Source of the DNA: a virus
Lineage: Duplodnaviria; Caudoviricetes
DNA: 34,894 nucleotides
Virus record (IMG/VR): IMGVR_UViG_3300020044_001239
Coordinates: 1-34,894 of that record
Reading direction: 5' to 3' (one strand)
The notes beneath the pieces were generated by a model. The model was not told the DNA's origin. It ran no database searches and saw only the letters and a list, made by a program, of their open reading frames with translations. Below are positions 85-34,398 of this stretch, one piece after another (position 1 is the first letter of the stretch; every line of letters starts with the position of its first letter). The translations under genes were made by a program, and so were the position numbers.

Positions 85-520
85 AGAACTTCACGACACC
101 TACGACAAGTTTGGAAGAGATATAGTTAAGAGCTATGTCTCTTCTTTTTGGGGTATGGAAGCTAGAGATAATCCTGACAGGTATGGGATTGATCTGCATC
201 TGTACAAAGACGACTTGTTGGTGGGGTATGCTGAGGTAGAAGTCAGACTGTCATGGAAAACTGTAGAGTTTCCCTATGAAGATTTGAATGTACCTAACAG
301 GAAAAAGAAGTTGTTAACACAGGACATGTTAACATACTTCTTTTCTGTTAATAAGGACGGGACAGCCTTGTTCCATTGCGAAGCTGCTACTGTGTTAGCT
401 TCAGAAGTTAAAGAGTCTAGAAATAAATATGTCTACCAAGGAGAACTCTTTTACAAGGTTCCTCTTGATAGACTATCTTATGTAGTATTACCTACGACTT
501 GCGAGGCCACCCTTAGCTAA
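62..520 (+). CDS. PD-(D/E)XK-like nuclease-fold protein (putative)
   Basis: ORF 26..520; the ATG at 62 is preferred over the TTG at 26. Motif spacing YGIDL...YAEVEVR resembles a restriction-endonuclease-like fold. It is the only well-supported complete plus-strand gene. Confidence 0.55.
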   Translation: MATKRFDKELHDTYDKFGRDIVKSYVSSFWGMEARDNPDRYGIDLHLYKDDLLVGYAEVEVRLSWKTVEFPYEDLNVPNRKKKLLTQDMLTYFFSVNKDGTALFHCEAATVLASEVKESRNKYVYQGELFYKVPLDRLSYVVLPTTCEATLS

Positions 521-3500
521 GCCAATTCTTTTCTTGTTCTCTTTATCTCTGTAGTCTCCACCTACCAAGTCTCTAATAGCATCTACTGCTTTAGTCTCAC
601 CTTTAACGGCAGCAGACATCTCAGCATTGGGACTACTTGAATCCACAGTGCTTTTACGCAACACATTAAATTGTTGTTCTAAAACTCTTAGAGCCTCAGC
701 TTTGTCTTTACTTCCTACCTTTTCCAAAGTGGAAATAACATCAGGTATAAACTTACCTAAATCAAAGTTTCTTACAAGCGAAGGTCTAGCAAGTCTACCT
801 AGTCTAGAAGCTGTGGATTGATTGCTGCTTGTGATAGGTGTGTATCCTGCTTCCATAGCAGCTTTACCACCAGTCTCTCTAAACTCATTTCTAACAATAC
901 CACGAATAAGACGATAGGCTTTCAAAGCTTGTACTTCTTCACTACCTAAACCACCTTCTTTAATAGGCTTTAAAGATTCTGGGGATAAGAAACTTCTTTT
1001 AAGCTCTTGCAATCTATCCAAAGAGTTATTAAAGATATCTTCTTGTTGGTTAAACAAAGGAGTTTTCTTCTCTGTCTCATACATGTTTCTAGAGATAGCA
1101 AGCTTTTCACTTTCTGTAAAAGCATCTTCAGACTCCTTCATACCAATAGATCTAGGAAGACCTAGAGGACGGGCCACTGTAGGAGATCCTGTAATAGATC
1201 TTGCAATGGTGTTCATGTCCCCCATATCCTCTACTCCTACTTTTTTCTTATACTGATCTCTAGACATATTGATTCGTCTAAATTCATAATCAGCATATGG
1301 GATAGTTGTTTGAACAATGTTCTCAGGATTTGTTCCACCAAAACTTGAGTTGGCATAATTGAAACGAGCATCAGAAGTAAAAGATGTTGCCCCTACTTTT
1401 AATTCTCTCTGTCCGGCTTGATCTTCTGGAAGTGTTTGAGGATCAAAGAAACCTTTAGTTGCTCTCTCTTCTGCGTTATATGGTGTACCATGATAGAGCA
1501 CCTTAGGAGGTCTGTCTTTATATTTCTCTCTAAGCTTGTTTAACTTATCTTGTAAAGGCATAGAGAAAGAAACAAAATCTTCTACAGATTTTGGATCATT
1601 AACATCCACCTCTTTACCTTTGGCTGCTCTATATTCCCCCTGAGCTACAGCAATAACATCATCTTCAACTTTACCTGCCACATTAGGCATCTCAATCAGC
1701 TTATCAAAAGCATCTGTCCTCATTTGCTTAATAGCAGTCAATGTATTCTGTCTAACCTCAAAATCTGAAATGATGTCTGAATCTTTGCTGAAGCCATATT
1801 TGGATTTATTTAAATCGCTCTCAGCTATGCCTTTCATATAAGGAGTCATAGGAGCAGGTGCTTCCATAGGAAGTTCTGTCTTAATCTCTGGCAACACCTC
1901 AGGCTCTACTTTAGGTGGTGGAGTGAATGAAGCTTCAGCTTCTGTTACCAGCTTCTCCATCTCTGCATCCACAGGCTTAGGCTGAGAGACAGGAGCACTA
2001 GCCTTACTCTTAACTTTAGGAAGAGCTTGTGTTGTTTGAACACCTGTCTCTGCTTTGTTAAGAGCACCTTCTACAGCATTGTTAATTTCATTGGCAATCA
2101 TTCCCTCAGGATTCTTAACTTTTCTAATAAGATCAAGCATTCCTTCAGCACCTGTTGCTGCAGCCTTAGCACCTGCTTTAATAATCTTTCCAGCAACCAC
2201 ACCTCCAGTAGCAAACCTAAGATCTTTAATCTTCCCTGAATACTCAGGTACTTTCATGTAATCATTGGCTTCTTCCAGTGTCTTACCATCGTGCTCAGCA
2301 GAATATCTATTGTTAATAATCTTACGAGTATCTTCAGGAAGTTTATTAAACTTCATCTTGTATACACGATTTAAATCTTCCTGCATAAACTGTGCTTCTG
2401 TAAGCTTTCTAGCCACAGGAAGTATTGCTGTAACGCTATCTTCAATAGCTTTCTTCTGTTCAATGTCAGGCAGGGATTGATAGCGAGGGCTTAACATAGC
2501 TCTTTGGATGGTAGCAATCACCAATGGATTAGCTGCTTCTACATAAGCCCTATCATATTCTTTATCACCCGATGGCTGACCAAACAGTTTATATGTATCA
2601 ACACCTAGATAGACTAGTTCAGTTTCTTCTGGTGTCTTCTGTGGTGTGATTCGAATACCAACTAAGTTGTTAAAAAATTCACCTTCTCTGTATATTGGAC
2701 CTTCTCTAACACGGGGAATAGTTTCTGGTAGGCTTTCTTTTAGCACAGGAAGTTTAGATTGAACTCTGTTCTTAGCGGCTTCTAATATTCTATCTGCTGG
2801 CTTTTCTGATGTAAGTACATTAGGATCTCTAGCAATAGAGCCACCCTCACGAATTAAATCAACAAAGTTAAAGATGTCTTTAACAATGGAGGGTGATGTA
2901 AACCTAGCACCAAAATCACCAATCACTTTACCAGTCTTATCAGCCCATTTCTCTACATCCCTCTCAGAAGAAAGAGCAGAGATGAGCTGATCCATGAATT
3001 GATTCTGTGTACCTGCTGGCATCTTTATACCAACAACAGCTTCAAAAGCATCACCAGTCTTTGCAGATAGTCCACGCTTTTGCTTCACCAATACATCAGC
3101 AACAGCTAAGTATGGACCAATAGGAAAGATGCCACGCATGTCTACAGTTGAGCCATCGTCTTTCTTGTAGTTGTTCCACTCAACATCTTGATTGCGTTCA
3201 CGATAGTCAATGGCAGCAAGCAATGCTGATGTACCTACAATGCCTTTAGCAATATTCTCTTGGCCTGTTCTGATAAGACTAGCACCACCCGCATCACCAT
3301 TGGCTAACATCTTAGAGCCTCTGAGTACATCCTCTGCACCAGACAGGCCACCTAAGGGGCTGTAGCGATACTGGAAGGCCATAGCATTGGTCATGAAGCG
3401 AGGGAAGGTAACAAACAAACTACCTCCGGGAATCTCTGCAGCCTTAACAAAGTAGTTGCCTAATTTTTCAGCACCTGCTTCCACTGTTTTGATGCCACCC

Positions 3501-5551
3501 TTAGGTATCTTAGGTGTGTAAGAGAAGGTAGCTTTCAATGTATCGTCTGCTGCTTCTTTAAGAATGTCAGCAGGAATCACCTTACCTTGATCGATAAGCT
3601 GATACATATCTAAACCAACCCCTCTAAGTTTCTTCTCTACAGCATTAGCAAAGATGGCCTTCCTAAAGAAAGCATCCTGTGCCACGTTAAGAGCGTTAGC
3701 CATACGAGCAACTTTGGACAGGTCTGTAGAGTCTTCTTGCATAGCAGAAAGAATGCTACTTCTGATGGATGGGTTATGCTCTAACAACTTGTCTGTAACT
3801 TCAGAGGCCAAGTCATTCTTACGGAGGTAGCCCCATGTACCAAAAGCATTATCAATGGTATCTCCAATGCTGGTTGTTAGTGTAGAGAATCTAGCACCCT
3901 TAGCTTCTGGTGATAGCGTCTTACCCACTGTCATTAATGCACCTTCAATAACAGAAGCGGCTGAATTAAATGTAAGTCCAACACCAGTACCCATGATGTT
4001 ACGAACAGTGGTTCCAATACCACTAACAATGAGGGCTTTACTTTCTCTCTCTACTCTATTGAATGCACCACCTAAGTAGCCAAGAGCAGATGTGTATTCA
4101 TCAGGCTTGCTATACAAAGCATCCACTTGCTTAGCAACATCAGGGTCAATTTGACGCAGACGATTCAGTGTCTTAGATGCTGTGGAATATTGCTGCATGA
4201 TTTGAGCAGCCTGTGTAACTGTCACTCTGTTAGCTTGGGCAAACTGTTCAGGACTAAGTCCTTCTTTTCTAATGGCTTGCTCTAACAGGGTGTCATCAAT
4301 AAGTCCTTGATCCATAGCAGAGAACACCTCAGCAATGGCTGTACTGGTCTTCTGTCCTGCTTTAACTTTGTAGGTAGGATCGTTCTCAATCACATTCATA
4401 GCCACACGAATGGCTCTCTGTGACAAGTCTCTACGAATGGCTGGCTCTACCAGAGCAGCAGCAGGAGAGATTTGATCTAATACTTTAGCACCTTCTTGCT
4501 TCATGAATTGCTCAGCAAGCATATCCATGTTCTCATCCACAGGTGTTAACAATGCAGACTCCACCTTAGTGGGTGGTGCTGTAGGATTTGTTGGTGTTTT
4601 CTCTCTAGACTTCTTAAGCAAGTCTTCAAACTGTTGCTTACCTGTCTTACCAAATTTAGCAGCAGCACCTTTGGCTTCTAAGTAACCACCACCACCACTC
4701 ATGACAGCACCCAAGATAATCTGTGGTGCATTTAGTTCTTCAACTTCTTTACCAATGCTACGATTAACTTCCTGATCAAGGCGTTGGCTAACAATGTTTT
4801 GACCAGCACCAGAGGTAGCTTCAAGGCCAGTGACTGCAGCAGTTACCTTGCCCTGTGTAGGCTTGAGCATAGAAGCTATCTTGCCTGTGGTAGCAGTGCC
4901 AGCAGCTACCTGTGCAGCTTCTTTAGCCACTGCTCCTTTAACAACTTGTTGACCCATCTTACCTGCACCAAAACCTAAATAGGTTAGTGGGTCTGTGGCA
5001 ATGGATGTTAATGCATTCCAATAAGGAACTAAAGCATCAGAGGTTCCATACCCTTGACCACCGGGCTGGAACACACTTCTTGTTTGTTTATATAGTTCTC
5101 TACCAAGACCCAGTGTCTGAGCATCCTCAGCCTTAGCATTACGGATTCTATTCAGTTCAGGAAGAGCACCAGTGAAAGTGTTGAATTCAACATCCCTCAT
5201 TGTTGCCATGTACTTCTTAACAAAGTCTTCGTCTGATTGACCCTTCTCAGGTTCAATGTTACGACTAACTTTCATGTAGTCTTTAACTACACCGAATAGT
5301 TCTGGATTTTTATACAACTCTTCAAAAGGAATCTTCTCTTCAATTCCTTTCTTAGTTGCTTCCTCAATCTTTGCCTTGCTAGGCATGAGGGGTTTGGTGA
5401 TGATGGCGGGTTTCTCTGCAGCCTTAAGCTCAGCTTCTGTAGGCGGCTTAACAACAGCAGCCTCCATTTGTTGAGGCGTTTGCTTTGGAATTAAATCATC
5501 AAACATACCACCACTAGATTTAGTGGGGATTAAGTCATCAAACATTCCCAT
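488..5551 (-). CDS. Large internal virion/ejection protein (1687 aa) with a C-terminal ADP-ribosyltransferase-like module
   Basis: Last and largest gene of the structural arm. It has N-terminal MFDDLIP repeats, a Gly/Ala hydrophobic segment and a helical body. The C-terminal part carries LYHGT / SFTSD / ESE motifs. Position corresponds to T7 gp16-like proteins. Confidence 0.7.
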   Translation of the reverse strand: MGMFDDLIPTKSSGGMFDDLIPKQTPQQMEAAVVKPPTEAELKAAEKPAIITKPLMPSKAKIEEATKKGIEEKIPFEELYKNPELFGVVKDYMKVSRNIEPEKGQSDEDFVKKYMATMRDVEFNTFTGALPELNRIRNAKAEDAQTLGLGRELYKQTRSVFQPGGQGYGTSDALVPYWNALTSIATDPLTYLGFGAGKMGQQVVKGAVAKEAAQVAAGTATTGKIASMLKPTQGKVTAAVTGLEATSGAGQNIVSQRLDQEVNRSIGKEVEELNAPQIILGAVMSGGGGYLEAKGAAAKFGKTGKQQFEDLLKKSREKTPTNPTAPPTKVESALLTPVDENMDMLAEQFMKQEGAKVLDQISPAAALVEPAIRRDLSQRAIRVAMNVIENDPTYKVKAGQKTSTAIAEVFSAMDQGLIDDTLLEQAIRKEGLSPEQFAQANRVTVTQAAQIMQQYSTASKTLNRLRQIDPDVAKQVDALYSKPDEYTSALGYLGGAFNRVERESKALIVSGIGTTVRNIMGTGVGLTFNSAASVIEGALMTVGKTLSPEAKGARFSTLTTSIGDTIDNAFGTWGYLRKNDLASEVTDKLLEHNPSIRSSILSAMQEDSTDLSKVARMANALNVAQDAFFRKAIFANAVEKKLRGVGLDMYQLIDQGKVIPADILKEAADDTLKATFSYTPKIPKGGIKTVEAGAEKLGNYFVKAAEIPGGSLFVTFPRFMTNAMAFQYRYSPLGGLSGAEDVLRGSKMLANGDAGGASLIRTGQENIAKGIVGTSALLAAIDYRERNQDVEWNNYKKDDGSTVDMRGIFPIGPYLAVADVLVKQKRGLSAKTGDAFEAVVGIKMPAGTQNQFMDQLISALSSERDVEKWADKTGKVIGDFGARFTSPSIVKDIFNFVDLIREGGSIARDPNVLTSEKPADRILEAAKNRVQSKLPVLKESLPETIPRVREGPIYREGEFFNNLVGIRITPQKTPEETELVYLGVDTYKLFGQPSGDKEYDRAYVEAANPLVIATIQRAMLSPRYQSLPDIEQKKAIEDSVTAILPVARKLTEAQFMQEDLNRVYKMKFNKLPEDTRKIINNRYSAEHDGKTLEEANDYMKVPEYSGKIKDLRFATGGVVAGKIIKAGAKAAATGAEGMLDLIRKVKNPEGMIANEINNAVEGALNKAETGVQTTQALPKVKSKASAPVSQPKPVDAEMEKLVTEAEASFTPPPKVEPEVLPEIKTELPMEAPAPMTPYMKGIAESDLNKSKYGFSKDSDIISDFEVRQNTLTAIKQMRTDAFDKLIEMPNVAGKVEDDVIAVAQGEYRAAKGKEVDVNDPKSVEDFVSFSMPLQDKLNKLREKYKDRPPKVLYHGTPYNAEERATKGFFDPQTLPEDQAGQRELKVGATSFTSDARFNYANSSFGGTNPENIVQTTIPYADYEFRRINMSRDQYKKKVGVEDMGDMNTIARSITGSPTVARPLGLPRSIGMKESEDAFTESEKLAISRNMYETEKKTPLFNQQEDIFNNSLDRLQELKRSFLSPESLKPIKEGGLGSEEVQALKAYRLIRGIVRNEFRETGGKAAMEAGYTPITSSNQSTASRLGRLARPSLVRNFDLGKFIPDVISTLEKVGSKDKAEALRVLEQQFNVLRKSTVDSSSPNAEMSAAVKGETKAVDAIRDLVGGDYRDKENKKRIGLAKGGLASRR

Positions 5552-7437: not shown

Positions 7438-7636
7438 TCATCAACTCCTCTTTTTGTTTTCTAATGGCTGCAATGTAGTTTGATACTTTACCAAATACAT
7501 CTGAAGATTTATCTTGAATAGAAATTTTATCTATTGGTTTAGATAACAATCCATTGCCAGTGTCTTTCTTTGGTTTAGATAGTTTGGAATTAGCCATACC
7601 ATCCACCTTAGCATAATAGTTTTTAAAGTTTTTCAT
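7427..7636 (-). CDS. Small basic hypothetical protein (69 aa)
   Basis: ATGA overlap with the 1008-aa gene and an 11-nt overlap with the next gene. Lys-rich. Confidence 0.65.
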   Translation of the reverse strand: MKNFKNYYAKVDGMANSKLSKPKKDTGNGLLSKPIDKISIQDKSSDVFGKVSNYIAAIRKQKEELMNGK

Positions 7637-10600
7637 GGTTTAATTAGTCCACCTGTTGCAACACCAACCAACACTCTGCCTACAAAGCTACCTAAAGCTG
7701 TTGAGCTTTCTGCATCTGCTTTAATGTTAGCACCAGCAATAGCAGCAGCAGCCCTTATCTCTTCAGCAGCAAGAGTGGTTGCTCTGTTAGCATCGTTCTC
7801 GGCAGAGGTCCAAGCGTGTGATACTGAATCACGATACATCTGTATCTCATTATTATATTCTGAAAGCGTCATCTGCTGTGCAAGTTGAGCATTCTGAATG
7901 TTAATTGAATTAATTGCACCGCTATTAATAGTAGCTATATCTCTTTGCCATTGAGCATTAGACTGATCAATTAACAATCTTTGTTGTGCATTAAATTGTT
8001 CTCTTTGATTTTGTACTTCAGCATTAAACTTCTTAACAGAGTTTGCTTGGTCAACTTTAAATTGTTCCATAGCATTGCTCTGTGCTGCATTAAATTGACT
8101 AACTTGTGATGTTAGACCAGCAAAGAATTGGTTTGTTTGATTTGTACTAGTAGCATTAAATTGCTTTGCTGCATTTTCAGCAGCAGTATCACTAAGAATA
8201 GTCTGTGCTTTTAGTTGTGTTTGAAGAATAGTTGATTGTTGTTCATAAGACAGGTTTGTTAAATCCATCTGCAAAGCAGATTGAGCATTAGCAACAGCAG
8301 CTTGTTGTCTGTTATTTAAATTAGCTGTCTCAAGAGTGGCTGTCTGTGCAAGCTCAGCCATGAAAGCAGCTTGTCTGCTATTAAGGTTGGCTAAGTCAAC
8401 AGACTGAGCAAGACGGGCATTCTCTAAAGCCACCTGTTGTTTAGCATTAAAGTTCATGTTGGCTATGTCAGCAACACGAGCAGCATTAACAACACGGGTC
8501 TGGAAGTTCTGATCAAACTCTTGACCTAAGAATGTAGCTCTTTGTTGTGCAGTTAGAACAGCCATCTGTTGTCTATTAGACAAATTCTGTGTAGCCATTT
8601 GTTGATACACAGCAGCATCAGCAGAAGCAATAGGCAAAGCTTTTTCTAAAGCAGCTTGTACTAAAGCAGCACCAGCCATACTAGAAGCACCAAGACCTCT
8701 AGCAGCCATCTCTGCTGTCACAGAACGCAGAGCACCAGCAGCCCAAGGCGGTGGATTCTTAGCATCAAAATCTTTAGTGAGTTTAGTAAGCTGACCTTGT
8801 ACAGTCATGTCTGCAGTAACTGTACCAGTTTCTGCTACATTCAATGCCATTGCTTTATCAATGGCAGTTTGGTCTACAGCACTACCAGCAACTTTCTCAG
8901 CTTCTGTTATTTTTCTTTCATCTACAGTGCCTACTTTTTGAGCAGTGGCAATTTGTTCTGCTCTTCCAGCAGCACCAGCAAGTTCTGTTGTTGCTAGTTC
9001 TTCTGCTTTTACTTTAGCTGCTTCAGACACAGTTCCTGAAGCAGGAAGAAACTTACTAAGTGCATCATTTAAAGATGTAAGGGCAGAAGAGGCTGTATAA
9101 GTTTCTGCAGTTATTGGCTTTACATCCGCTGCTAATACAGCAGAAGCAGGAGTAGTTCCTGTAATAGTTTGTGCAGCACCAGCTCTATTGGTAGTGCTGA
9201 TGTCTTGTATACCTTGTGCTACTATTTTTGATGGGGCTATTTGAGAAGCAGCAGCAGCTTGTGGTGTTCCACCTATTGGCGTATAAGTAACATCACCACC
9301 ACCAGTAACTTTACCTGCAGCAGCAGCATCGGCAGCAGCCTTGTCAGCAGCAGCTTTAGCATCTGCAATAGCTTTAGCAGCAGCTTCATTAGCTGCTCTA
9401 ACAGCAGCAGCCGCTGCCATGAAGGAAGCATTAGTAGCATCTGTCGCAGCTTTAGCAGCGGCAGCATCTGATGCAGCTTTTGCAGCGGCAGCAGCAGCAA
9501 CTGCTGAAGCATCAGAGGCAGCCTTGGTAGCAGCAGCAGCATCGGCAGCGAGTTTATCAGCAGCAGCCTTTTGTGCTACTGTGGTTGCAGCATCTTGTGC
9601 AGCTTTAGCAGCGGCAGCGTCAGCAGCAGCTTTATCGGTAGCAGCTTTCGCAGCAGCAGCGGCTCTATCTGCTGCAGCTTTATCAGAAGCAGCCTTAGCA
9701 GCAGCAGCTTCTGCAGCAGCTTTTTCAGCGGCAGCTTTATCAGCAGCAGCTTTTGCTGAAGCAGCGTCAGCAGCAGCTTTATCTGCAGCAGCTTTGTCTG
9801 CAGCAGCCTTCTCAGCAGCAGCCTTCTCAGCAGCAGCTTTGTCTGCTGCTATCTTGGCAGCAGCCGCAGTAAAAGAAGCATTGGCATCAATAGGTGCAGC
9901 AGCAGCATCATATCTCTCTTGTACAGCCACCAGTCCAGATCCTGTAGCTCTTGCTAAGTCTGCTGCACTAACACCATACTTATCCATCTCTGCTCTTACA
10001 GCAACATCAGACAATCCATTTGCTGCTGCTGTTTTGTAAGCATCTAAAATGTTCTTATCGTATTGTTCTTTTGTAATGCCGTTGTTTACAGCCCAAGTAA
10101 GACCAGCAGAAGCAGGGGCTGCTGCAATGTTAGCAGCATTAATATTCTGAGCAGCAGCAGAGAATGAAGCATTAGTAGCAGCAACTTGATCAGCAGCGGC
10201 TTTATCTGCAGCAGCTTTGTCTGCTGTAAGTTTAGCGGCAGCAGCAGAGAAGGAAGCACTGGCATCTATAGGAGCAGCAGGTATTGCTGCATATCTATTA
10301 GCAATGTCAGCAGCAGTGGTTTCATTAGCACCAATGGCTTTAGCAAACTGATCAGGTGTCACCTTAAACTGATCCATTGTTGCTTTAATTTGAGTGTCAG
10401 ATAGTTGTTGATTTACTGGGTTGTTCCACCAGTCAGCTATCTGTGCATCTGTAACAACACCGCCATCAGCGTACTTCTTACGCTTCATCTTAACGAGTCC
10501 ACCTTTAGCCATACGCTCAATAAACTTACCAGCGATGGTGGCATACTTCATTTCTAATGCGGGATTAGACGAGATGAATTCATCGAAGCCTTGCATTGGG

Positions 10601-10659
10601 CCTTCATAGCCAAGCTTTCGAGCAACTACTTCTCGCTGTTGTGCTGTAAAATCTTTCAT
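7633..10659 (-). CDS. Ala-rich internal virion/DNA pilot-like protein (1008 aa)
   Basis: Long AAADKAAA helical tract. The C-terminal half is Q/N/A-rich and helical, with a Gly/Ala hydrophobic patch (GLGASSMAGAALVQAAL), typical of ejected tube-forming proteins. Confidence 0.65.
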   Translation of the reverse strand: MKDFTAQQREVVARKLGYEGPMQGFDEFISSNPALEMKYATIAGKFIERMAKGGLVKMKRKKYADGGVVTDAQIADWWNNPVNQQLSDTQIKATMDQFKVTPDQFAKAIGANETTAADIANRYAAIPAAPIDASASFSAAAAKLTADKAAADKAAADQVAATNASFSAAAQNINAANIAAAPASAGLTWAVNNGITKEQYDKNILDAYKTAAANGLSDVAVRAEMDKYGVSAADLARATGSGLVAVQERYDAAAAPIDANASFTAAAAKIAADKAAAEKAAAEKAAADKAAADKAAADAASAKAAADKAAAEKAAAEAAAAKAASDKAAADRAAAAAKAATDKAAADAAAAKAAQDAATTVAQKAAADKLAADAAAATKAASDASAVAAAAAAKAASDAAAAKAATDATNASFMAAAAAVRAANEAAAKAIADAKAAADKAAADAAAAGKVTGGGDVTYTPIGGTPQAAAASQIAPSKIVAQGIQDISTTNRAGAAQTITGTTPASAVLAADVKPITAETYTASSALTSLNDALSKFLPASGTVSEAAKVKAEELATTELAGAAGRAEQIATAQKVGTVDERKITEAEKVAGSAVDQTAIDKAMALNVAETGTVTADMTVQGQLTKLTKDFDAKNPPPWAAGALRSVTAEMAARGLGASSMAGAALVQAALEKALPIASADAAVYQQMATQNLSNRQQMAVLTAQQRATFLGQEFDQNFQTRVVNAARVADIANMNFNAKQQVALENARLAQSVDLANLNSRQAAFMAELAQTATLETANLNNRQQAAVANAQSALQMDLTNLSYEQQSTILQTQLKAQTILSDTAAENAAKQFNATSTNQTNQFFAGLTSQVSQFNAAQSNAMEQFKVDQANSVKKFNAEVQNQREQFNAQQRLLIDQSNAQWQRDIATINSGAINSINIQNAQLAQQMTLSEYNNEIQMYRDSVSHAWTSAENDANRATTLAAEEIRAAAAIAGANIKADAESSTALGSFVGRVLVGVATGGLIKP
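9315..9905 (-). repeat. Degenerate 15-nt coding tandem repeat (AAA[DE]K units)
   Basis: Plus-strand units such as agcagcagccttctc / agcagcagctttatc encode KAAAEKAAAEKAAADKAAADKAAAD. Confidence 0.85.
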
Positions 10660-10964
10660 ATGTTTCTTGGTTTCTCTATTGCTTCAGTTAAATAAGCAAG
10701 CATATCTCTGTTATCTCTGAGAAGTGCTAACACTCCTACAGCTAAACAATACACTTGTCTCTCTGACAGTTTTAATTGGAAGCAGTCGTCTATAGCGTGT
10801 ATACATTCATGTAACAATGTATCTGCCTCCGCTAAGGGGTGCTGACCAGACTTTATTTTAATTGCATAATCGTCATAGTTGTATTCTCCAAGCTGCTCAG
10901 GGAATACATCTACAACTCTAATCGGCACTTCTCTGCCAATAATACTTAGAGAAGCTGGTAACAT
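10656..10964 (-). CDS. HEXXH zincin-like metallopeptidase-domain protein (102 aa)
   Basis: LGEYNY..YAIKI...DTLLHECIHAI: a minimal zincin/SprT-ImmA-like signature. ATGA-coupled to the 1008-aa gene. Confidence 0.7.
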   Translation of the reverse strand: MLPASLSIIGREVPIRVVDVFPEQLGEYNYDDYAIKIKSGQHPLAEADTLLHECIHAIDDCFQLKLSERQVYCLAVGVLALLRDNRDMLAYLTEAIEKPRNI

Positions 10965-11007: not shown

Positions 11008-11622
11008 TCAACCACCTAATACATGTAAGGCATGTTCGATATGCTGCTTACGATCTTCTAGTCCTATTGTGCCACCATTAATACGCTTTGTCATGGTGAG
11101 TATGTCACCACTATCTGCATACTGGTTGAGCCTGTGAGTCTGCCAGAACCAGCCAGCAGTTTGGGCAGCATACATAGGTGTACGGACCAGTTCAGGCTGC
11201 ATAATGAAATCAACTCCTAAGGCTTGTCCAGCATGGTAGAAATTGTTCATGCCAGTTAGCTGTAAAAATCCGGATCCACGGAACCTGAACCCATCCCCAC
11301 TAGCCTCATCCCTGTTGCCCATACGATTGCCATAGATTCTATTGGCTATCTTCTGTGGCTGCTTCTCATAGGCAGCAGCACTCTCTGGTGTGAAACCCCA
11401 GACCCGCTTAGGAGTTTGAGGAAACAGCTTCAATAATGTTGCAGCTTTATAATTTAAATTCTCTTCCATGATGCGGAAGTTTCCACACTCATGACCACAT
11501 TGACCAATCCATGAAGCCTGTTGTGCAGGAGTAACAATGCCAAACCTCTCAAAGGTTTCATTAAAAGGATCTACTAAAGCAGGATCAATCTTAAGTTGTC
11601 TTAGTTGTTCAGCGTTTACCAT
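11008..11622 (-). CDS. Endolysin, glycoside hydrolase family 19 (chitinase/lysozyme-like)
   Basis: GH19 motifs QCGHECGNF..MEENLNY, DGFRFRGSGFLQLTG..NF, AGWFW and TKRINGGTIGLEDR. Confidence 0.92.
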   Translation of the reverse strand: MVNAEQLRQLKIDPALVDPFNETFERFGIVTPAQQASWIGQCGHECGNFRIMEENLNYKAATLLKLFPQTPKRVWGFTPESAAAYEKQPQKIANRIYGNRMGNRDEASGDGFRFRGSGFLQLTGMNNFYHAGQALGVDFIMQPELVRTPMYAAQTAGWFWQTHRLNQYADSGDILTMTKRINGGTIGLEDRKQHIEHALHVLGG

Positions 11623-15962: not shown

Positions 15963-16223
15963 TTACACAGTTTCTAAATCAGGCACTTTTATATTTGCCA
16001 TAATAACTGCGGTTGAATTATCTCGATCAATAGTCAAGTAACCTTGACAAATGATATTGTAGTCAACTCCGTTAATATCTTTTTCGCTTTTAATTGGAAC
16101 TGTTATGTCTAAATTCTTAAACAAAAACTCTTTTCCATTTTCAAAAACTCTCCAGACATGGTCCATTGAACCACGCCCAGCTTGACCCCTGCTTTTATTA
16201 AATCGAATTTGATATGTGTTCAT
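15963..16223 (-). CDS. Hypothetical protein (86 aa)
   Basis: ATGA-coupled to the oxygenase gene; beta-rich, function unknown. Confidence 0.7.
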   Translation of the reverse strand: MNTYQIRFNKSRGQAGRGSMDHVWRVFENGKEFLFKNLDITVPIKSEKDINGVDYNIICQGYLTIDRDNSTAVIMANIKVPDLETV

Positions 16224-16927
16224 ACAATTTCAGCGGCTGGTGCAGGGCATGATTGCTGTGGAGCAGGGATGACAGTCAAATTAAAATGAACAAACTTAAT
16301 TGGCATCTCTGCTGCATGGCGAGTAAACGAATGCATCAACCATGAGTTAGCAAAGATCATCATGCCGGGTTTAGGCGTGAAGTTAATCATTTTGCTGGCA
16401 GGTGTTGCCCTACCCATGTCTTGCTCTGGTAAATCAATCTGAACCTTAGCCGCACGGGGATCATGAAACACTACGTTAGAGCCATCCTCTGGAGTCTCAA
16501 GAAAATAAAAGCCTACAATCTGTGAGCCATATCCGTGAACGTGTGCGTCCATAGCAGAATGCTTATGGTGCTCTTGTGTCCACATCTCTGTAAACGACAC
16601 TGCCATGTTTTGCATGTCATACCCCTGCTCATTGAGAATGTTCCAAGCAGTTGCACCAACAAACTCGGTAAAACTTGCCATGCGAGGATCAGCAAAATAA
16701 TTGTCCGTCATGTACACTGGATAAATGTCATTTAATGGATGGGCTTTTTTAACCACTTCCAGACCTTCCTCAGACACAGTATTAACAACTTCTAAAAAGT
16801 CAGTACGCTCAATGATGTAGATTGGGCAAGGGAAATGATATGCAACTTGAAGCTGTGTGTTCTTGACCACTTCAGCCACTGACTCAGCGGCTTTGCATAC
16901 CTTTTGTTTTTTAGCTATTTTGCTCAT
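16220..16927 (-). CDS. 2OG-Fe(II) oxygenase superfamily protein
   Basis: FPCPIY...W....DAHVH...IVGFYFL...VFHDPR...PKPGMMIFANSWLMHSF...VHFN, the double-stranded beta-helix oxygenase pattern common in aquatic phages. Confidence 0.8.
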   Translation of the reverse strand: MSKIAKKQKVCKAAESVAEVVKNTQLQVAYHFPCPIYIIERTDFLEVVNTVSEEGLEVVKKAHPLNDIYPVYMTDNYFADPRMASFTEFVGATAWNILNEQGYDMQNMAVSFTEMWTQEHHKHSAMDAHVHGYGSQIVGFYFLETPEDGSNVVFHDPRAAKVQIDLPEQDMGRATPASKMINFTPKPGMMIFANSWLMHSFTRHAAEMPIKFVHFNLTVIPAPQQSCPAPAAEIV

Positions 16928-24133: not shown

Positions 24134-25204
24134 TTAAGCAGCGTTGTATTTAGCAGTGACCAATGCCTCAGGACGCAAGATTTTGCGACCATAGAGATGC
24201 ATACCACGCACGATGTCAGCAAAGCTGTCAGGGTCACGATAGGTTTCAGTCTTAGTGATCTGTTGGGCAGTTGCCACAGCAGAGTCATGACCACCAACGA
24301 TAACACCGAAGTTGCTGTTTTGGTTAGCTGTACCAGCAGTACCAGCACCAGTACCAACCTTAGGCAAGTTGTTAGAAACAAACACACGGAAGCCGTGCAA
24401 GTTATCTACCACCAAACCATTTTGCAGACCAGCACCACCGAACAAGTTATTGAACAAGCGTGAGTCTTCGTCTTTCAACAGTTCGATGAAGATGGGATCA
24501 ACCACCAACCAACGACCATTTGTATCAACAAATTGTTGATCCATCAAACGACCCATACGAGCAATCACTTGCAATGGTGTAGCTGTTGCTGTTGGAGCAG
24601 CAGTAGCACCGGGCAAACGAGGAGCCAAAGGAATGGAATGATCACCAGCGGAACCAGTGGTAATGTTACCAAAGTCGCCTTTCTTCAATTTCATTGTAGA
24701 CAACAACTCATCAGAACCAGCGGCAGTAACTGCCTTAGTACCGGGAGCAGTTGTACGAGCAGTGTCAGGTGTAACATGCTTGGCAGACTGATAGTAGCCA
24801 GACAAGTAACCCAAGACATCTTGATCATACTGGTCACGCAAACGATATGCTGCACGATCAGAAGCCATCTGCATGAAGTTCACATGTGAGTGAGCAGCTT
24901 CAATGTCATCAATCTTGAATGCATAGTAGTTAGCCTGATCAACAACCAATGTGAAGTCTTCGTCATTCAGGTCTTGTGCTGTGATTTGTGTACCACGAGC
25001 ATAGTTCTGAACAGAAACTTCTGGCTCTTTAATGATCTTGACAGAGTCGCCCATGTTGGCGATTTCACCGAAGTAGTCATTATTAGTAATGGCTTCGACA
25101 GTGGACGATTTACGGAATGCAAGTTGAACTTGCTTGGAATAGATTACGGGGCTAAAATTACCATTGGGTAAATTGCCGTAACCTACAGCTTTTGGAAATG
25201 CCAT
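24134..25204 (-). CDS. Major capsid protein (HK97 fold, podovirus type)
   Basis: 356 aa after the scaffold gene. Motifs FSPVIYSK, GEIANMGDSVKI and DIVRGMHLYGRKILRPEAL. AGGAGG RBS. Confidence 0.92.
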   Translation of the reverse strand: MAFPKAVGYGNLPNGNFSPVIYSKQVQLAFRKSSTVEAITNNDYFGEIANMGDSVKIIKEPEVSVQNYARGTQITAQDLNDEDFTLVVDQANYYAFKIDDIEAAHSHVNFMQMASDRAAYRLRDQYDQDVLGYLSGYYQSAKHVTPDTARTTAPGTKAVTAAGSDELLSTMKLKKGDFGNITTGSAGDHSIPLAPRLPGATAAPTATATPLQVIARMGRLMDQQFVDTNGRWLVVDPIFIELLKDEDSRLFNNLFGGAGLQNGLVVDNLHGFRVFVSNNLPKVGTGAGTAGTANQNSNFGVIVGGHDSAVATAQQITKTETYRDPDSFADIVRGMHLYGRKILRPEALVTAKYNAA

Positions 25205-25471: not shown

Positions 25472-26338
25472 TTATCGAGCGTTACCACTCAAATCATATA
25501 TAAACTTACCAGATTTCATGGCTTTAGCAATGGCTTCTTGGTTAGCTTCATACTGGTGGCTAGTCATCTTATTTACATCAGACTCATAGAAAGTACCATT
25601 TGTATCCTCAGAAGCAGGGGTAGAACGAGCACCTCTTGTTCCTACACTTCTTGCTGCATCTTTAGGATTGCTTTCTTTCTTAGTCCTAATTCCTTTGTCA
25701 GCCTTGTACAAATCAATGGCACGAGAGGCTGCTCTAGCATCAGTGTCGTTTTCATACAACGCTTGTTGCACCCACTTAGGTTGATCTTCAACCCAGTCAT
25801 GGAATGCATCATCATCACGGATAGAGTTAAAGTCTGGATGCAAACGCATCAACTCAGCTTCTGCTGATTCTTTTGCAGTTTGTTGTTCTCTTTCATCAAG
25901 CTGACGAAACCTATCTTCAATTTCTTTAGATTGTTCCTTTGCCTTCTTCATAGCAATGGTTTCAACAATCTTGGCAACATCAGGATATTGTGCTGCCCAT
26001 TCATTAAGTTCATCTTCTGTCTTAGGGAACTTAATTTGTTTAGTAGTGGACTGCTCCAGTTGAGACTTCAATGCATCAATCTGGCTTTGCAGTTGCGTTT
26101 GTTGCTGCTGAGAATGTCTACGAAGATCACCATAACGCTTCTTAAAACTCTTCTCTTCTGCACTCTCTGGCTCAGCACCAGAGTCTGAGTTAGATTCTTC
26201 AGAGGGATTGTTCGCCTCTTGCAGTTTCTTCAACTCTTCTTCGTCTTCCTTAATACGCTCCTCAGTAGAGTTTCGTTTACCGAAAGGAGAAAACGCTTTT
26301 ACTTCTTGCTTTTGATCAAGCACTACTTCTGTTGTCAT
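25472..26338 (-). CDS. Capsid scaffolding protein (288 aa)
   Basis: Acidic/charged coiled coil (FKKRYGDLRRH, HPDF..I..DDAFHDW) immediately upstream of the MCP gene. Confidence 0.8.
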   Translation of the reverse strand: MTTEVVLDQKQEVKAFSPFGKRNSTEERIKEDEEELKKLQEANNPSEESNSDSGAEPESAEEKSFKKRYGDLRRHSQQQQTQLQSQIDALKSQLEQSTTKQIKFPKTEDELNEWAAQYPDVAKIVETIAMKKAKEQSKEIEDRFRQLDEREQQTAKESAEAELMRLHPDFNSIRDDDAFHDWVEDQPKWVQQALYENDTDARAASRAIDLYKADKGIRTKKESNPKDAARSVGTRGARSTPASEDTNGTFYESDVNKMTSHQYEANQEAIAKAMKSGKFIYDLSGNAR

Positions 26339-26456: not shown

Positions 26457-27557
26457 TTACTTTTTAGATTTCTTAGATCTTTTAGTTACTAAGCCACCTT
26501 TGGCAAAGTCTCCTACACCCACACCATCACCTTCACCACTAACACCATCAGTAGTAGAACCATCATCCACACCCAATGCAGCAGCATTAGCTGCTAATCC
26601 TTCTGGAGAAGCGGTTGTTGCGCTAGTAACCCCCTCAGAAATAGAAGCATCATCAATACCTAAGGCAACAGCATTAGCTGCTAGACCTGCTGCATTAGCA
26701 GAAGTAGAAACTCCTGTTGTAGTTACAGCATCTGAAACACTTACTGGAGTTCCAATAGTATTGCTTGTAATACCATCAATAGCATTAGCAATAGCTCCAA
26801 TGGCAATACCAATTGCAGAATTGCCAACGGATGTACCAGAAGGACCACCAACACCTGAACCAGTGCCTACAGATGCACCACCTGCTGGTCCTGTTGGTCC
26901 ATCACCACCACCTCCTTGAGTTCCGTCTAAGGCTGTTGTAGTAGTATTTATTTTTGTTTCATCTGTCTTCTTAACTTCAGCTAAGAATTGACCAGCAGAT
27001 CCTGCAAATTCATATCCAGCAGGAATCTGAATAGAGGGTTTATCATTAAAGAAAGTAATGTACATCACTCTACCTTCTTTATTCTTATATGCTCTAACAT
27101 CCAATGCTGGGTTGGTAATAGATGTTTTAGGAATGTTGTATTTAGCTAAGTAGTCAGTGCCGGGTTCATTGAAACCACCAGCAGCAAACTGTTTAGTACC
27201 ATCACCACTATCTACCTCAGCCATGATGTCATCAATCTCTTGACCAAACTCATCACCATGTAGAGCCTCTGGATCTTCCACTTGATCAGCATTACCCATC
27301 TGACCAATCTCACTCATACGAGAAAGACCTGCTTTAGCTTCATCACGAAGCTTCATCAATCGTTCAAGACCAATGTAACGAACAACGTCAGCAGGAATAA
27401 CAAACTCACCCTCGCTTAGTTGAGCAGGAATATCATCTCTCACTTCATTCTGCATAGCTCCCGGAGGTACTTCATTACCACTCACTGGATCTGTAGTACC
27501 ACCCTGCTGATTAATTCCTCCATCAGCGAAGAGCTTGTTCATTTCATTGTTCAGCAT
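26457..27557 (-). CDS. Head-module protein (366 aa) with a DDIPAQLSEGEFV domain; candidate processing/packaging factor
   Basis: Lies between portal and scaffold. N-terminal FADGG...RDDIPAQLSEGEFVIPADVVRYIG domain, a Gly/Ser/Thr/Ala linker and a basic C-terminus. The CDS is well supported; the function is inferred. Confidence 0.6.
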   Translation of the reverse strand: MLNNEMNKLFADGGINQQGGTTDPVSGNEVPPGAMQNEVRDDIPAQLSEGEFVIPADVVRYIGLERLMKLRDEAKAGLSRMSEIGQMGNADQVEDPEALHGDEFGQEIDDIMAEVDSGDGTKQFAAGGFNEPGTDYLAKYNIPKTSITNPALDVRAYKNKEGRVMYITFFNDKPSIQIPAGYEFAGSAGQFLAEVKKTDETKINTTTTALDGTQGGGGDGPTGPAGGASVGTGSGVGGPSGTSVGNSAIGIAIGAIANAIDGITSNTIGTPVSVSDAVTTTGVSTSANAAGLAANAVALGIDDASISEGVTSATTASPEGLAANAAALGVDDGSTTDGVSGEGDGVGVGDFAKGGLVTKRSKKSKK

Positions 27558-27765
27558 TTACTTCATCTCTCAAATATTTAAGATGGCGCAAAGCAGCAAT
27601 AGCCCCTTGTGCCTTAAAAACATCACTCATCTCTACAGCTTGTTCAAGCTTTCTCTGTTGCTGTGCTACATTGTAGTCAAGCATTTCACAGAAGGCTTCC
27701 CACTGTAGGTGGTTACTAGCAAGCTGTTTAAGCTTGGGGAGGAACGGCTTGTTGCTGTTGGACAT
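27544..27765 (-). CDS. Small helical protein downstream of portal (73 aa)
   Basis: The ATG at 27765 (after GCAGGTA) is preferred over the longer start in the track. KAQGAIAALR motif; overlaps the portal 3' end and the next gene. Confidence 0.65.
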   Translation of the reverse strand: MSNSNKPFLPKLKQLASNHLQWEAFCEMLDYNVAQQQRKLEQAVEMSDVFKAQGAIAALRHLKYLRDEVNAEQ

Positions 27766-29821
27766 TACCTGCAAATCCTTGTTCACCCGGCACTGGTGCA
27801 GCACCAACGCCAATATTACCACCACCGCCACCCGTCATATCTTGTACACCGGGAGCACCACCAGCAGCAGGAGGCGTAGTGCCTGTAGCTTCCTGATTCT
27901 GTCTAAGTAGATAGGCTTGCAATGCAGCCTCTTCCATACTGTTAGTCACCTTGTCTGGATCTAAGTCCATGCTCTTCGCAATTTCTTTGATGATGTAAGG
28001 AAACTTAGCAAACGGCATCAAAGCTGGAGAACTAGCAATCTGCAAGAACTGCATCAAGCGTTGACTCCTCACTTCGTTAGCCATCAAGCTCTCTGTACCT
28101 TTAGCCTTAACTTCCAAATCACCTCTGATTTCAGCATCAAAGTCAAACTGCATATTGAAACTGAAGAAGGCTTTACCCAAAGGCTCAAGCAAGTAGTCAT
28201 CAATGTTCTTGATAACAGTTTTGATGTTGCCTGATGCAGCATTCATCAACATGCTAATACCAGCAGCAGTACGGCCTACACCAGAGATACCTGTTTGTCC
28301 ATGAGAGAACGAAGGAATACCTGTGGACTCATCAGCAAGTTGTCTTGCTTTGTCAAACAGTTGCAAGTTCTCAGCAGCCACGTTAGGAAACTTAGTTCCA
28401 AACAAGCTTTGACCCGGAGCACCACCCTGTCGCCTAAACACTTTGCCGGGATAGACAGAGAGTTCTTGACCGGGAACCATATTGGTTTCATCAATCTCAA
28501 ACACTAAGTTACCAGACAACACAGCATTGTCTACAGCCATACGCATGAAACCATTCATGAGCATCTGTGTATCACTCATGTTCTCACCAATACCAATACC
28601 AGCAAGTGAGTATGGATTGAGTTCATACGGAGCAGCATGATAAGGAATCTTTGCTGGCTTGAATGGATTGAGAACAAGACGCAAGATGGATCCATTGCAA
28701 TACCAAATGTTGGCTTGCAACTCTTCCATGTCTTCCAACTCTTTAGGAATCTCTACATCATTCTCTTTGAGCAAGTCAATAGAAACATTACCCCAATATT
28801 CCAACACTTCATATCTGTTAACACCAAAGCGAGGAGCATAGTCTCTTAAGTCATCTTCCCAATACTTCTTGATGTAGCCTTCACCACCTTCAACAACTTG
28901 ATCAATCACATTACCACGGAAGAAAGGTCTACGCTTCAACGCATACATTTCTGTTCTGCTCATCTTATGACGCTCAATGACATACTGGCATTGATCCATG
29001 TTCACTGCATCTGGATCCCAATAGAAATTCCAAATAGAAACATGTGATACTTCAGGAACAGTTTTTATTTCAGGATTGTACTTACCTGTCTCATCCCAGT
29101 TTGGATATTCTTTGTTAATGGCAAACGGCCCCTTCATAACGCCTGTACCAAACAAGGCCATCTCAAAGGCAGTGGAACGCAAGTGCTTATTAGCACCACT
29201 CTCATCCAATTGGTCATGTATCTTCTTCTCCATCTTCTTAGCTGCAACAGCAGCAGGATGGAATGTGATACTAGTGGGAGTAGCCCCCGGTCCTTCTTTG
29301 ATGTTCTTAACATCTTTAAGTTTATTCTTAAGAGGACCAAGGTTGTATGCTGTAGTTCCGGGAGGTAATTCTTTACCATCACCTTTATAACCAAAAGGCA
29401 TAGAAGGTAAGTCTAGTTCTGTATCTTCCATTCCGGGGGGTTCTGTTGGATCGAAGTGAACAGAATCAGAGACACCATCAGGAATAGGTGTAGGATCTAC
29501 AGACAAAGGAAACTTATTATTAGCAAACAAGACATCTGTAATCTGACCATATGCAGCCAATGTCTTTGTCTTTGTCACTTTAATGAATACACGAGACTTC
29601 TCTGTCTCAGTAAATTGAACATCAGGACCATACAAGCCACGATAGTTTCTATATGCTTTTAACCAACGAGTTTCGTCAGTGATGCGGCCTTCTTCAGACT
29701 TACTGAAAAGCTGCTGAATATATTTAACAAGGGAATCCGCATAGAATGTGTCATCCCCATCTTTCTTAATATCTTCTAATGAAATAGGATTGCTATCCAT
29801 GAAAGATTGTTTCTCTGCCAT
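27728..29821 (-). CDS. Portal (head-tail connector) protein
   Basis: 697 aa directly after TerL. Motifs ALFGTGVMK, GIGIGE, ADESTGIP..SHG and RTAAGISML; Gln/Pro/Gly-rich tail. Confidence 0.9.
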   Translation of the reverse strand: MAEKQSFMDSNPISLEDIKKDGDDTFYADSLVKYIQQLFSKSEEGRITDETRWLKAYRNYRGLYGPDVQFTETEKSRVFIKVTKTKTLAAYGQITDVLFANNKFPLSVDPTPIPDGVSDSVHFDPTEPPGMEDTELDLPSMPFGYKGDGKELPPGTTAYNLGPLKNKLKDVKNIKEGPGATPTSITFHPAAVAAKKMEKKIHDQLDESGANKHLRSTAFEMALFGTGVMKGPFAINKEYPNWDETGKYNPEIKTVPEVSHVSIWNFYWDPDAVNMDQCQYVIERHKMSRTEMYALKRRPFFRGNVIDQVVEGGEGYIKKYWEDDLRDYAPRFGVNRYEVLEYWGNVSIDLLKENDVEIPKELEDMEELQANIWYCNGSILRLVLNPFKPAKIPYHAAPYELNPYSLAGIGIGENMSDTQMLMNGFMRMAVDNAVLSGNLVFEIDETNMVPGQELSVYPGKVFRRQGGAPGQSLFGTKFPNVAAENLQLFDKARQLADESTGIPSFSHGQTGISGVGRTAAGISMLMNAASGNIKTVIKNIDDYLLEPLGKAFFSFNMQFDFDAEIRGDLEVKAKGTESLMANEVRSQRLMQFLQIASSPALMPFAKFPYIIKEIAKSMDLDPDKVTNSMEEAALQAYLLRQNQEATGTTPPAAGGAPGVQDMTGGGGGNIGVGAAPVPGEQGFAGNVQQQQAVPPQA

Positions 29822-33823: not shown

Positions 33824-34048
33824 TCAGCACTTCTTCTTAGCCATGCCACCTTTAGCCATAGCAGTTTTACCCTTTGGCTTACCCATACCAATCATAATGG
33901 CAATAGCTGGCTTCTTAGCCATGCCACCCTTAGCCATCTTCTCTTCAGCCTTCTCTTTTTTCATAGGCTCTTTTTTCTCATGCTTCATCATTGCACCTTT
34001 AGAAGCGTAAGTTTCTTTACCTTCTTTAATCATTTTGTTCATAGCCAT
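33824..34048 (-). CDS. Small Lys/Met-rich protein with two MAKGGMAKK repeats
   Basis: ORF coupled to both neighbours, with a 27-nt internal duplication. Confidence 0.7.
   Translation of the reverse strand: MAMNKMIKEGKETYASKGAMMKHEKKEPMKKEKAEEKMAKGGMAKKPAIAIMIGMGKPKGKTAMAKGGMAKKKC
33833..33937. repeat. 27-nt direct repeat (1 mismatch) encoding MAKGGMAKK
   Basis: cttcttagccatgccacctttagccat at 33833-33859 and cttcttagccatgccacccttagccat at 33911-33937. Confidence 0.9.
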
Positions 34049-34398
34049 TATTTTTTCCCTTTAGTACCAAACACATTATGGGGCTTCATAGAAGCACCCA
34101 CACCACTATTAACCACCATACCACCCTTTGCCATCATTGGTGTTTGCATAGGCATAGCATAACCACCACCCATCATCTTCTTCTCTTTGTTAGTGGCTGT
34201 ACGGCTACCTCTAACAGGCATACCACCCTTAGCCAGTTTAGCTGGAGGAGTAGAAGGAGTAGGAGCTTTAGTGGCTTCATAAGCCTTACGCTCTAGCTCA
34301 TTAGCTCTGTCCAAATAGGTGTTACGCACCTCTTGAGGAATGCTCTCATCTTTAGCCTTCTCTCTATACATCTTTACTTTCTCTGCATCGGTAGCCAT
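34048..34398 (-). CDS. Small basic protein with LAKGGM/MAKGGM motifs (116 aa)
   Basis: AAGGAG RBS; helical N-terminus and a disordered, motif-bearing C-terminus. Confidence 0.75.
   Translation of the reverse strand: MATDAEKVKMYREKAKDESIPQEVRNTYLDRANELERKAYEATKAPTPSTPPAKLAKGGMPVRGSRTATNKEKKMMGGGYAMPMQTPMMAKGGMVVNSGVGASMKPHNVFGTKGKK

Follow-up and report, generated by a model that had tools for sequence, protein, structure and literature searches.

The question raised by this locus is what a small protein encoded between the portal and scaffold genes of a podovirus does with three copies of a short AxGG tag and a module that resembles the C-terminus of siphovirus tape measure proteins. The window, i.e., the whole stretch of 34,894 nucleotides analysed here (IMG/VR record IMGVR_UViG_3300020044_001239), is the late region of an HMO-2011-type podovirus, and its named late genes, all on the minus strand, encode the terminase, an SU10-type portal, a putative scaffold, the capsid, an adaptor, and a nozzle-like protein. 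A sequence-only reading of the gene had noted that it occupies the slot in which head-maturation proteases usually lie, and had proposed that its N-terminal domain is a peptidase, or a peptide-binding domain, acting on the tags.

The slot itself is well conserved: portal, small gene, and module gene follow one another in all related loci long enough to include the portal (73/73), with the scaffold coming next in 58/58. The intervening small gene has no known family. The three tags and the residues D41, D42, S48, E49, and E51 named by that reading are where it had put them (Table 1), and among phages the module is matched best by HMO-2011 gp49 and by proteins of the Roseobacter CRP phages. The motif of the module can be written DDIPAxLSEGEFV and lies N-terminal in the 366-aa protein; the GG of the first tag is conserved in 99% of 150 sequences. 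A membrane-channel reading of the C-terminal half was considered and not adopted, since its hydropathy peaks at 1.34 and a value of 1.5 is reached by 22/122 homologues.

Table 1. Features of the window; residue numbers refer to the protein named in the row or, for parts, to the 366-aa protein.
Feature	Position	Strand	Basis or remark
Gene of the putative tagged cargo/processing protein, 366 aa, HMO-2011 gp49 orthologue	26457..27557	-	ORF, homology, kept position
Tag 1, FADGG, residues 10-14; predicted cut before A11	27516..27530	-	
Conserved module, residues 10-89, made of the tag, a family insertion, the DDIPAQLSEGEFVIP core, and two helices	27291..27530	-	
Core, D41-P55, with conserved acids D41 and E51	27393..27437	-	
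Tag 2, FAAGG, residues 124-128; predicted cut would release a 12.2-kDa acidic module	27174..27188	-	
Small predicted beta domain, residues ~150-187, without family	26997..27110	-	model pLDDT ~90
Gly/Ala/Ser/Thr-rich variable region; weakly hydrophobic at 247-265 (mean hydropathy 1.34)	26508..26960	-	
Tag 3, FAKGG, residues 351-355, with Lys-rich tail (net +7)	26460..26507	-	
Portal, SU10-type; possible docking site of the module	27728..29821	-	family profile match
Small untagged gene, 95 aa, between portal and module gene	27544..27831	-	conservation in loci
Putative scaffold gene	25472-26338		ORF listing and family profiles
Capsid gene	24134-25204		ORF listing and family profiles
Probable internal virion protein, 1687 aa; tags at 1113 and 1678	488..5551	-	role inferred from size and position
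Probable internal virion protein, 1008 aa; tags at 50 and 63, variant at 1000	7633..10659	-	
Basic protein, 74 aa, two MAKGG tags	33824..34048	-	
Basic protein, 116 aa, two tags	34048..34398	-	

The tags exceed what shuffled sequences contain. In the 366-aa protein FAxGG occurs three times against 0.027 expected, with a maximum of two in 10,000 shuffles. Across the 38 ORFs of the window, the strict pattern [FYLM][AN]xGG, which was picked after sequence inspection, occurs 11 times against 2.4 +/- 1.5 expected (maximum nine in 1,000 shuffles), and the loose AxGG pattern is much weaker, with 23 occurrences against 11.3 and a shuffle maximum of 24. The 11 strict tags lie in five genes, namely those of the 366-aa protein, the two large probable internal virion proteins, and the two small basic proteins. 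In 80 related loci, the module gene holds 252 tags against 34 shuffled (80 ORFs), compared with 12 against 24.4 in the portal, 0 against 0.8 in the scaffold, and 3 against 8.6 in the capsid, and no excess is found in the terminase, adaptor, or nozzle either. This confinement to the module gene argues against a classical prohead protease, the role that the position of the gene had brought to mind. Regarding the predicted cut, the residue behind it is Ala in all three tags of the 366-aa protein, and in its family the residue at that position is frequently N, Q, E, D, or K.

Several observations concern the tagged genes and their surroundings. HMO-2011 gp25 carries a pair of N-terminal tags identical to that of the 1008-aa protein, and lacks the long Ala/Lys/Asp repeat (AAADKAAA type) present at residues ~140-460 of the latter (gene at 7633-10659, minus strand). 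The two small basic proteins (33824-34398, minus strand) are Met/Lys-rich and encoded upstream of the terminase; comparable tag-rich small genes occur in HMO-2011 (gp67, gp68) and in four other genomes (G006, G008, G010, G043), and, if cut at their tags, the two proteins of the window would yield basic peptides of 1-6 kDa. Just upstream of the 1008-aa protein gene lies an ORF (10656-10964, minus strand) for 102 aa with an HExxH motif, belonging to phrog_1233 (unknown function), possibly a small metallopeptidase. A GH19 endolysin (11008-11622) and a 2OG-Fe(II) oxygenase (16220-16927), both on the minus strand among the tail-fibre genes, are ordinary for such a phage. In addition, some podovirus-type modules have a degenerate upstream tag of their own, such as FSGSG or FPRKTG (L213, L216, L231, L248, L272, and others), as does gp79 of Pelagibacter phage HTVC103P, with intact tags elsewhere in such proteins.

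Tag and module also occur together in genomes picked by the tag alone. Among 120 contigs selected only by the string MAKGGMA, 49 were searched by profile (nine of at least 30 kb among the first 80, and the last 40), and 15 of them gave a module match. Six of the seven contigs that are at least 90% complete matched by profile, and the module of the seventh, which is divergent, was found by eye. The module is present in 7/7 near-complete genomes of this sample, which is small and made of genomes that are not independent; the sequence-only reading had expected tag-rich phages to carry the domain, and these do. One 71%-complete contig with the tag and no tag excess showed no module in the 80 kb searched, and neither tag excess nor module was found in phiEco32 (48 of 77.5 kb) and HTVC010P.

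In the homologues, the tags bound swappable payload domains. A profile-free search returned 3,158 representatives at 50% clustering, the family of the window protein is found in ~7,200 stored IMG/VR stretches, and homologues are up to 1,594 aa long. An upstream tag is present in 146/149 representatives and both flanking tags in 121/149; N-terminal extensions occur in 66/149, and 54 of these 66 end with a tag right before the module's own tag. The extension domains, identified in 45 mostly long homologues and in some cases by matches under the curated cut-off, are tail lysozyme (5), L5-gp82 (5), LPD23 (4), ART-PolyVal (4), and a methyltransferase (1). By rough rules, the C-termini of the 149 representatives are a tag, mostly with a basic tail, in 93, a Cys-box in eight, and Hint-like in five; profiles confirmed one CFI-box-CTERM and one intein C-terminal match. 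P0138 and P0208, P0142, and gp25 and gp49 of HMO-2011 have C-terminal domains of these kinds (Hint-like, CFI-box-CTERM, or a related Cys-box) that stand beside the last tag or replace it. Moreover, large phages encode tape-measure-like proteins of 1,700-2,600 aa (L220, L235, L257-L259), in each of which two to three modules are accompanied by numerous isolated tags.

The module is related to one near the C-terminus of tape measure proteins. The gpH segment of lambda that the sequence-only reading had cited is real (FATGG at 733, HRGEFV, YATGG at 778), and profiles were needed to reach it, as BLASTP against gpH left the module unaligned. A profile built from the family only aligns with residues 732-774 of the whole lambda gpH at E 5.9e-4, and with 12 scanned modules at an hhalign probability of 97.3% and E 1.7e-11, a value that is partly circular because these partners were motif-selected. 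With lambda among its members, a mixed profile retrieves the tape measures of Douge (E 8e-23) and JBD30 (E 1.8e-7) from the PDB; the family-only profile found no tape measure there at E 10, and phmmer with the window protein returned nothing relevant from the PDB. Among the tblastn matches listed (60 of 84 records), 41 of 50 weak ones carry a tape measure annotation; the tape-measure rows come from phages of Burkholderia, Gordonia, Rhodococcus, Corynebacterium, Thermobifida, Nitrincola, and Vibrio, many of them mutually close kin. A motif scan gave 135 distinct modules, with a tag upstream in 88 and downstream in 74, and a Pfam tape-measure match in 9/38 module host ORFs scanned. DxIPA- and GExGPE-type motifs are estimated to occur in ~7,700 and ~20,000 stored IMG/VR stretches.

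In lambda gpH (732-786, inside TIGR01541; the lambda loci compared are near-identical), JBD30 gp46 (1019-1087), and Douge gp16, the order tag-core-helix-tag is that of the window, but there the module is C-terminal in a long helical ruler, whereas in the window it is N-terminal in a protein of 366 aa from a phage with no long tail. The window protein is not itself a tape measure, being of that short length, with no TMP domain, and accompanied by podovirus-type adaptor and nozzle genes. The JBD30 stretch is described, in the available part of PMC11445458, as a predicted hook with no peptidase motif.

A precedent for cutting at such a tag comes from the T5 tail protein pb2. In the accessible text of Linares 2023 (PMC10038345), pb2 is cut after R1127, and intact masses of 121,683 and 9,702 are given for whole tails without trypsin. 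Residues 1128-1131 read AEGG, one of just two AxGG in 1,219 residues, and are followed by MGEHGTEVV; a cut before A1128 computes to 9,701.7 Da and the neighbouring cuts to 9,857.9 and 9,630.6, so that only A1128 fits 9,702. R1127 is a trypsin-type site, and an older MALDI value, for a cut after V1148, is still cited against it in the portions of the literature available. In T5 (PMC10038345; PMC11937500) the chain is cut directly before AxGG, with a Gly/Glu module behind, and the module side stays in the particle; the tag is also present in the window. T5 pb2 differs in being of the GExGxE subtype, with a single site in a tail protein, where the window has many tags on head cargo. The accessible T5 pb2 papers do not describe this site as a shared motif.

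The T5 stretch belongs with a wider set of tape-measure modules, matching their GExGPE profile at E 4.9e-5. These modules have a tag at most 25 residues upstream in 90/114 cases, against 16/114 control windows, with a modal spacing of 14 that T5 shares; the residue after the predicted cut is Ala in 84/90, and all five PDB matches of the profile (5/5) are tape measures. Between the window core and the T5-type core only the tag aligns, at an E of 0.0045 at best, which is not significant. The DxIPA and GExGPE subtypes appear to be akin, judging from the shared tag, the Gly/Glu turn, and a place 90-140 residues from the tape-measure C-terminus.

Regarding lambda, the available part of PMC12617516, a 2025 paper, places the gpH cut between tail assembly and the joining of the head, and states that site and catalyst are unknown. 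A cut at A734 would give 12.5 kDa, against a quoted ~14 kDa. The T5 pb2 cut occurs in capsid-less tails, which came from a capsid amber mutant that possibly still makes the head protease, as far as the accessible sources go. The timing in lambda and the cutting in capsid-less T5 tails suggest that the shared element is the module and not a head protease.

A further likeness is the crAss001 cargo protein C1, gp45 (PF25725), which is punctuated by about seven tags, has a basic tag-bearing C-terminus, and contains a VEQGEVV look-alike of the core. Its portal-bound density, residues 425-552 in 12 copies (PMC10172136, in part), has A425 of an AFGG tag as its first residue, and the piece seen in the tail barrel, 214-245, is bracketed by the tags at 207 and 261. 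The ordered domain that begins at a tag may simply begin at its first strand, and the authors, in the text available, model gp45 as a single uncut chain through the portal. The protein also has a predicted membrane helix, which the window protein does not clearly have. At a cut-off of E 10, the PF25725 (crAss_CARG1) model is matched neither in the window nor in HMO-2011, lambda, or two relatives, and the window core compares with the gp45 domain at an hhalign E of 0.08-0.09, not significant. The gp45 cluster was the nearest named one in two ESM Atlas queries (0.85), which has the level of a lead, and a search for diverse crAss homologues gave just copies of 98-100% identity. As the window core aligns significantly with neither the T5 nor the crAss core, what ties these precedents to the window is the tag and the shared architecture.

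No mapped tape-measure cut was found in the accessible literature on F-pyocin, Douge, TP901-1, and marine proteomics, and no naming of the AxGG tag as a shared cut site was found in a literature base from which subscription papers were mostly absent and which further included the available parts of PMC11937520, PMC10713586, PMC5099701, PMC13033339, PMC12874032, 10.64898/2026.02.24.707460, and PMC12014285.

The conservation of the module singles out two acids. In a mixed alignment G50, E51, and F52 are invariant and D41 is nearly so, which is partly a selection effect; in modules found by profile E51 is kept and G50 may be D or N. Among the residues that the sequence-only reading proposed to mutate, E51 and D41 are conserved, and the other three are not: E49 is free (P in 62, D in 56, and N in 10 of 135 modules), D42 is often S/T, and S48 can give way to T, N, Q, or H among related modules, with no conserved His/Lys partner. 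This replacement of S48 makes a serine-nucleophile mechanism unlikely.

The two conserved carboxylates are split between tandem copies where the module is duplicated. A second copy occurs in 22/54 VPAMV[ST]PGE modules, with a few more missed by the rule; copy 1 has the Glu, which was imposed by the search pattern, and the Asp in 0/22, whereas copy 2 has the Asp in 22/22, at a position left free, and lacks the Glu. The Asp is missing in 13/32 single-copy rows as well. These natural two-copy modules (L656, L663, and 20 more of L622-L701) are C-terminal in Gln/Gly-rich ejection-type proteins. The split suggests an acid pair formed between copies, i.e., one site built from two hairpins, for which single-copy proteins would have to form an oligomer. 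Two AlphaFold2 models (pTM 0.29 and 0.42) have a core of high pLDDT with no sheet in the monomer, and a core that is confident yet unpaired would fit the oligomer reading.

No conventional protease was recognized, as the sequence-only reading had reported. The 366-aa protein has no family match in Pfam, PHROGs, or NCBIfam, nor any match to the S14 (ClpP), S78 (HK97), and S80 (T4 gp21) families or known catalytic motif. Foldseek and VIA searches with the two models gave generic helix or weak MbtH-like matches and no protease fold, the crAss gp45 chain being absent among the structure matches listed; a viral structure library returned orthologues and, weakly, tape measures. Autoprocessing of the Ntn/Hint type is not indicated, since Ala, and not Ser, Thr, or Cys, follows the predicted cut in the three tags. 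The proposal that the tags are cut sites gains by analogy with T5; its companion, the module as a protease, finds no family or fold to join. None of the three outcomes that the sequence-only reading had named as contrary to it was observed. In T4 (gp21) and in SPN3US and phiKZ (gp245 and gp175), many internal proteins bear a short motif that destines them for cleavage as the particle assembles, and the enzymes, serine proteases of full size, process capsid and scaffold as well, cutting after Glu. The window resembles these systems in its short motif on several probable internal proteins; it differs in having no such enzyme, in an untagged capsid and scaffold, and in a cut predicted before Ala.

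The reading that we favor, tentatively and with somewhat less than even confidence, is that the AxGG tags are maturation cut sites, cleaved before the Ala, and that module 10-89 is a small oligomeric peptidase with an Asp41/Glu51 pair drawn from two copies. This estimate follows from its two parts: the tags are probably cut in the window phage, and, given cutting, the chances that the module is the cutter are slightly better than even. Tags that recur in five late proteins bound the module and, in homologues, exchangeable payloads; the chain would be cut before the tag Ala, as published for T5. The prohead would gather the tagged precursors, perhaps via the basic tails that follow the last tag. 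The module would dock close to the portal, in the manner of the crAss001 gp45 domain, and the assembled copies would cleave their own tags as well as isolated ones on other cargo. The freed payloads would be ejected and the module left behind, as pb2C and gpHC are in the tail tip; the tagged proteins are likely packed into the head and injected. Self-cutting is a matter of parsimony, the module being the only element found in common between the lambda and T5 tails and the window phage, and the size of the core, 30-60 residues, is very small for a peptidase and counts against the module as cutter.

That smallness, and the lack of any protease match, speak for an alternative that we consider possible if rather unlikely, in which the tags are cut by another protease. 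This could come from the host, from the tail tip or head, or from the small neighbouring gene or the HExxH gene, and the Glu of the module would only hold on to the tag or the newly made N-terminus and so keep the fragment attached to the portal or tail tip. The T5 and crAss precedents serve this explanation equally: the crAss domain is visible, in its 12 copies, as a structural element bound to the portal, and the T5 amber mutant could still produce a head protease (both from partly available sources). However, no protease is evident in common for T5, lambda, crAss, and the window phage, and the split Asp/Glu fits a shared active site better than an anchor, with which it is still compatible. 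For the HExxH gene no match turned up in the 43 kb of HMO-2011 compared (12-55 kb), and it was set aside as a general cutter.

It is less likely still that the tags are not cut here and serve as beta-strand docking or packaging signals, bound by the module for cargo loading, the T5 coincidence not being transferable. The variable predicted P1' residue, the cores that do not align, the uncut-chain model of crAss, and the contested T5 site (as presented in the accessible sources) agree with this, but the T5 mass matches the tag exactly, the tags sit at payload boundaries, and the Hint-like (5/149) or Cys-box (8/149) C-termini at the place of the last tag point to processing there. Finally, it is very improbable that the protein is a prohead protease of the conventional kind, with capsid, scaffold, or portal as its substrates, since its constant place between portal and scaffold is outweighed by the missing S14/S78/S80-type match, by the three supposed substrates having no tag excess, and by the module occurring, in other podoviruses, on ejection-type proteins elsewhere in the genome.

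Returning to the module as cutter, a broader and more doubtful extension is that tag and hairpin module together are undescribed miniature acid peptidases, activated by assembly and distributed over siphovirus tape measures, crassvirus cargo, and podovirus ejection proteins. Brought close together in the tail tube or around the portal, the copies would complete the Asp/Glu site and cut before AxGG. If so, the module would supply the catalyst still sought for the maturation of lambda gpH and T5 pb2, gpH would be cut at F733/A734, and crAss001 gp45 would be a polyprotein that is already cut in the virion. The tag reading predicts an exact site in lambda gpH and, for both lambda and T5, singles out two residues as targets for mutation. 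Moreover, a cut-site code would make the mature products of cargo polyproteins, among them injected ADP-ribosyltransferases and cell-wall enzymes, readable from sequence in abundant marine, freshwater, and gut phages.
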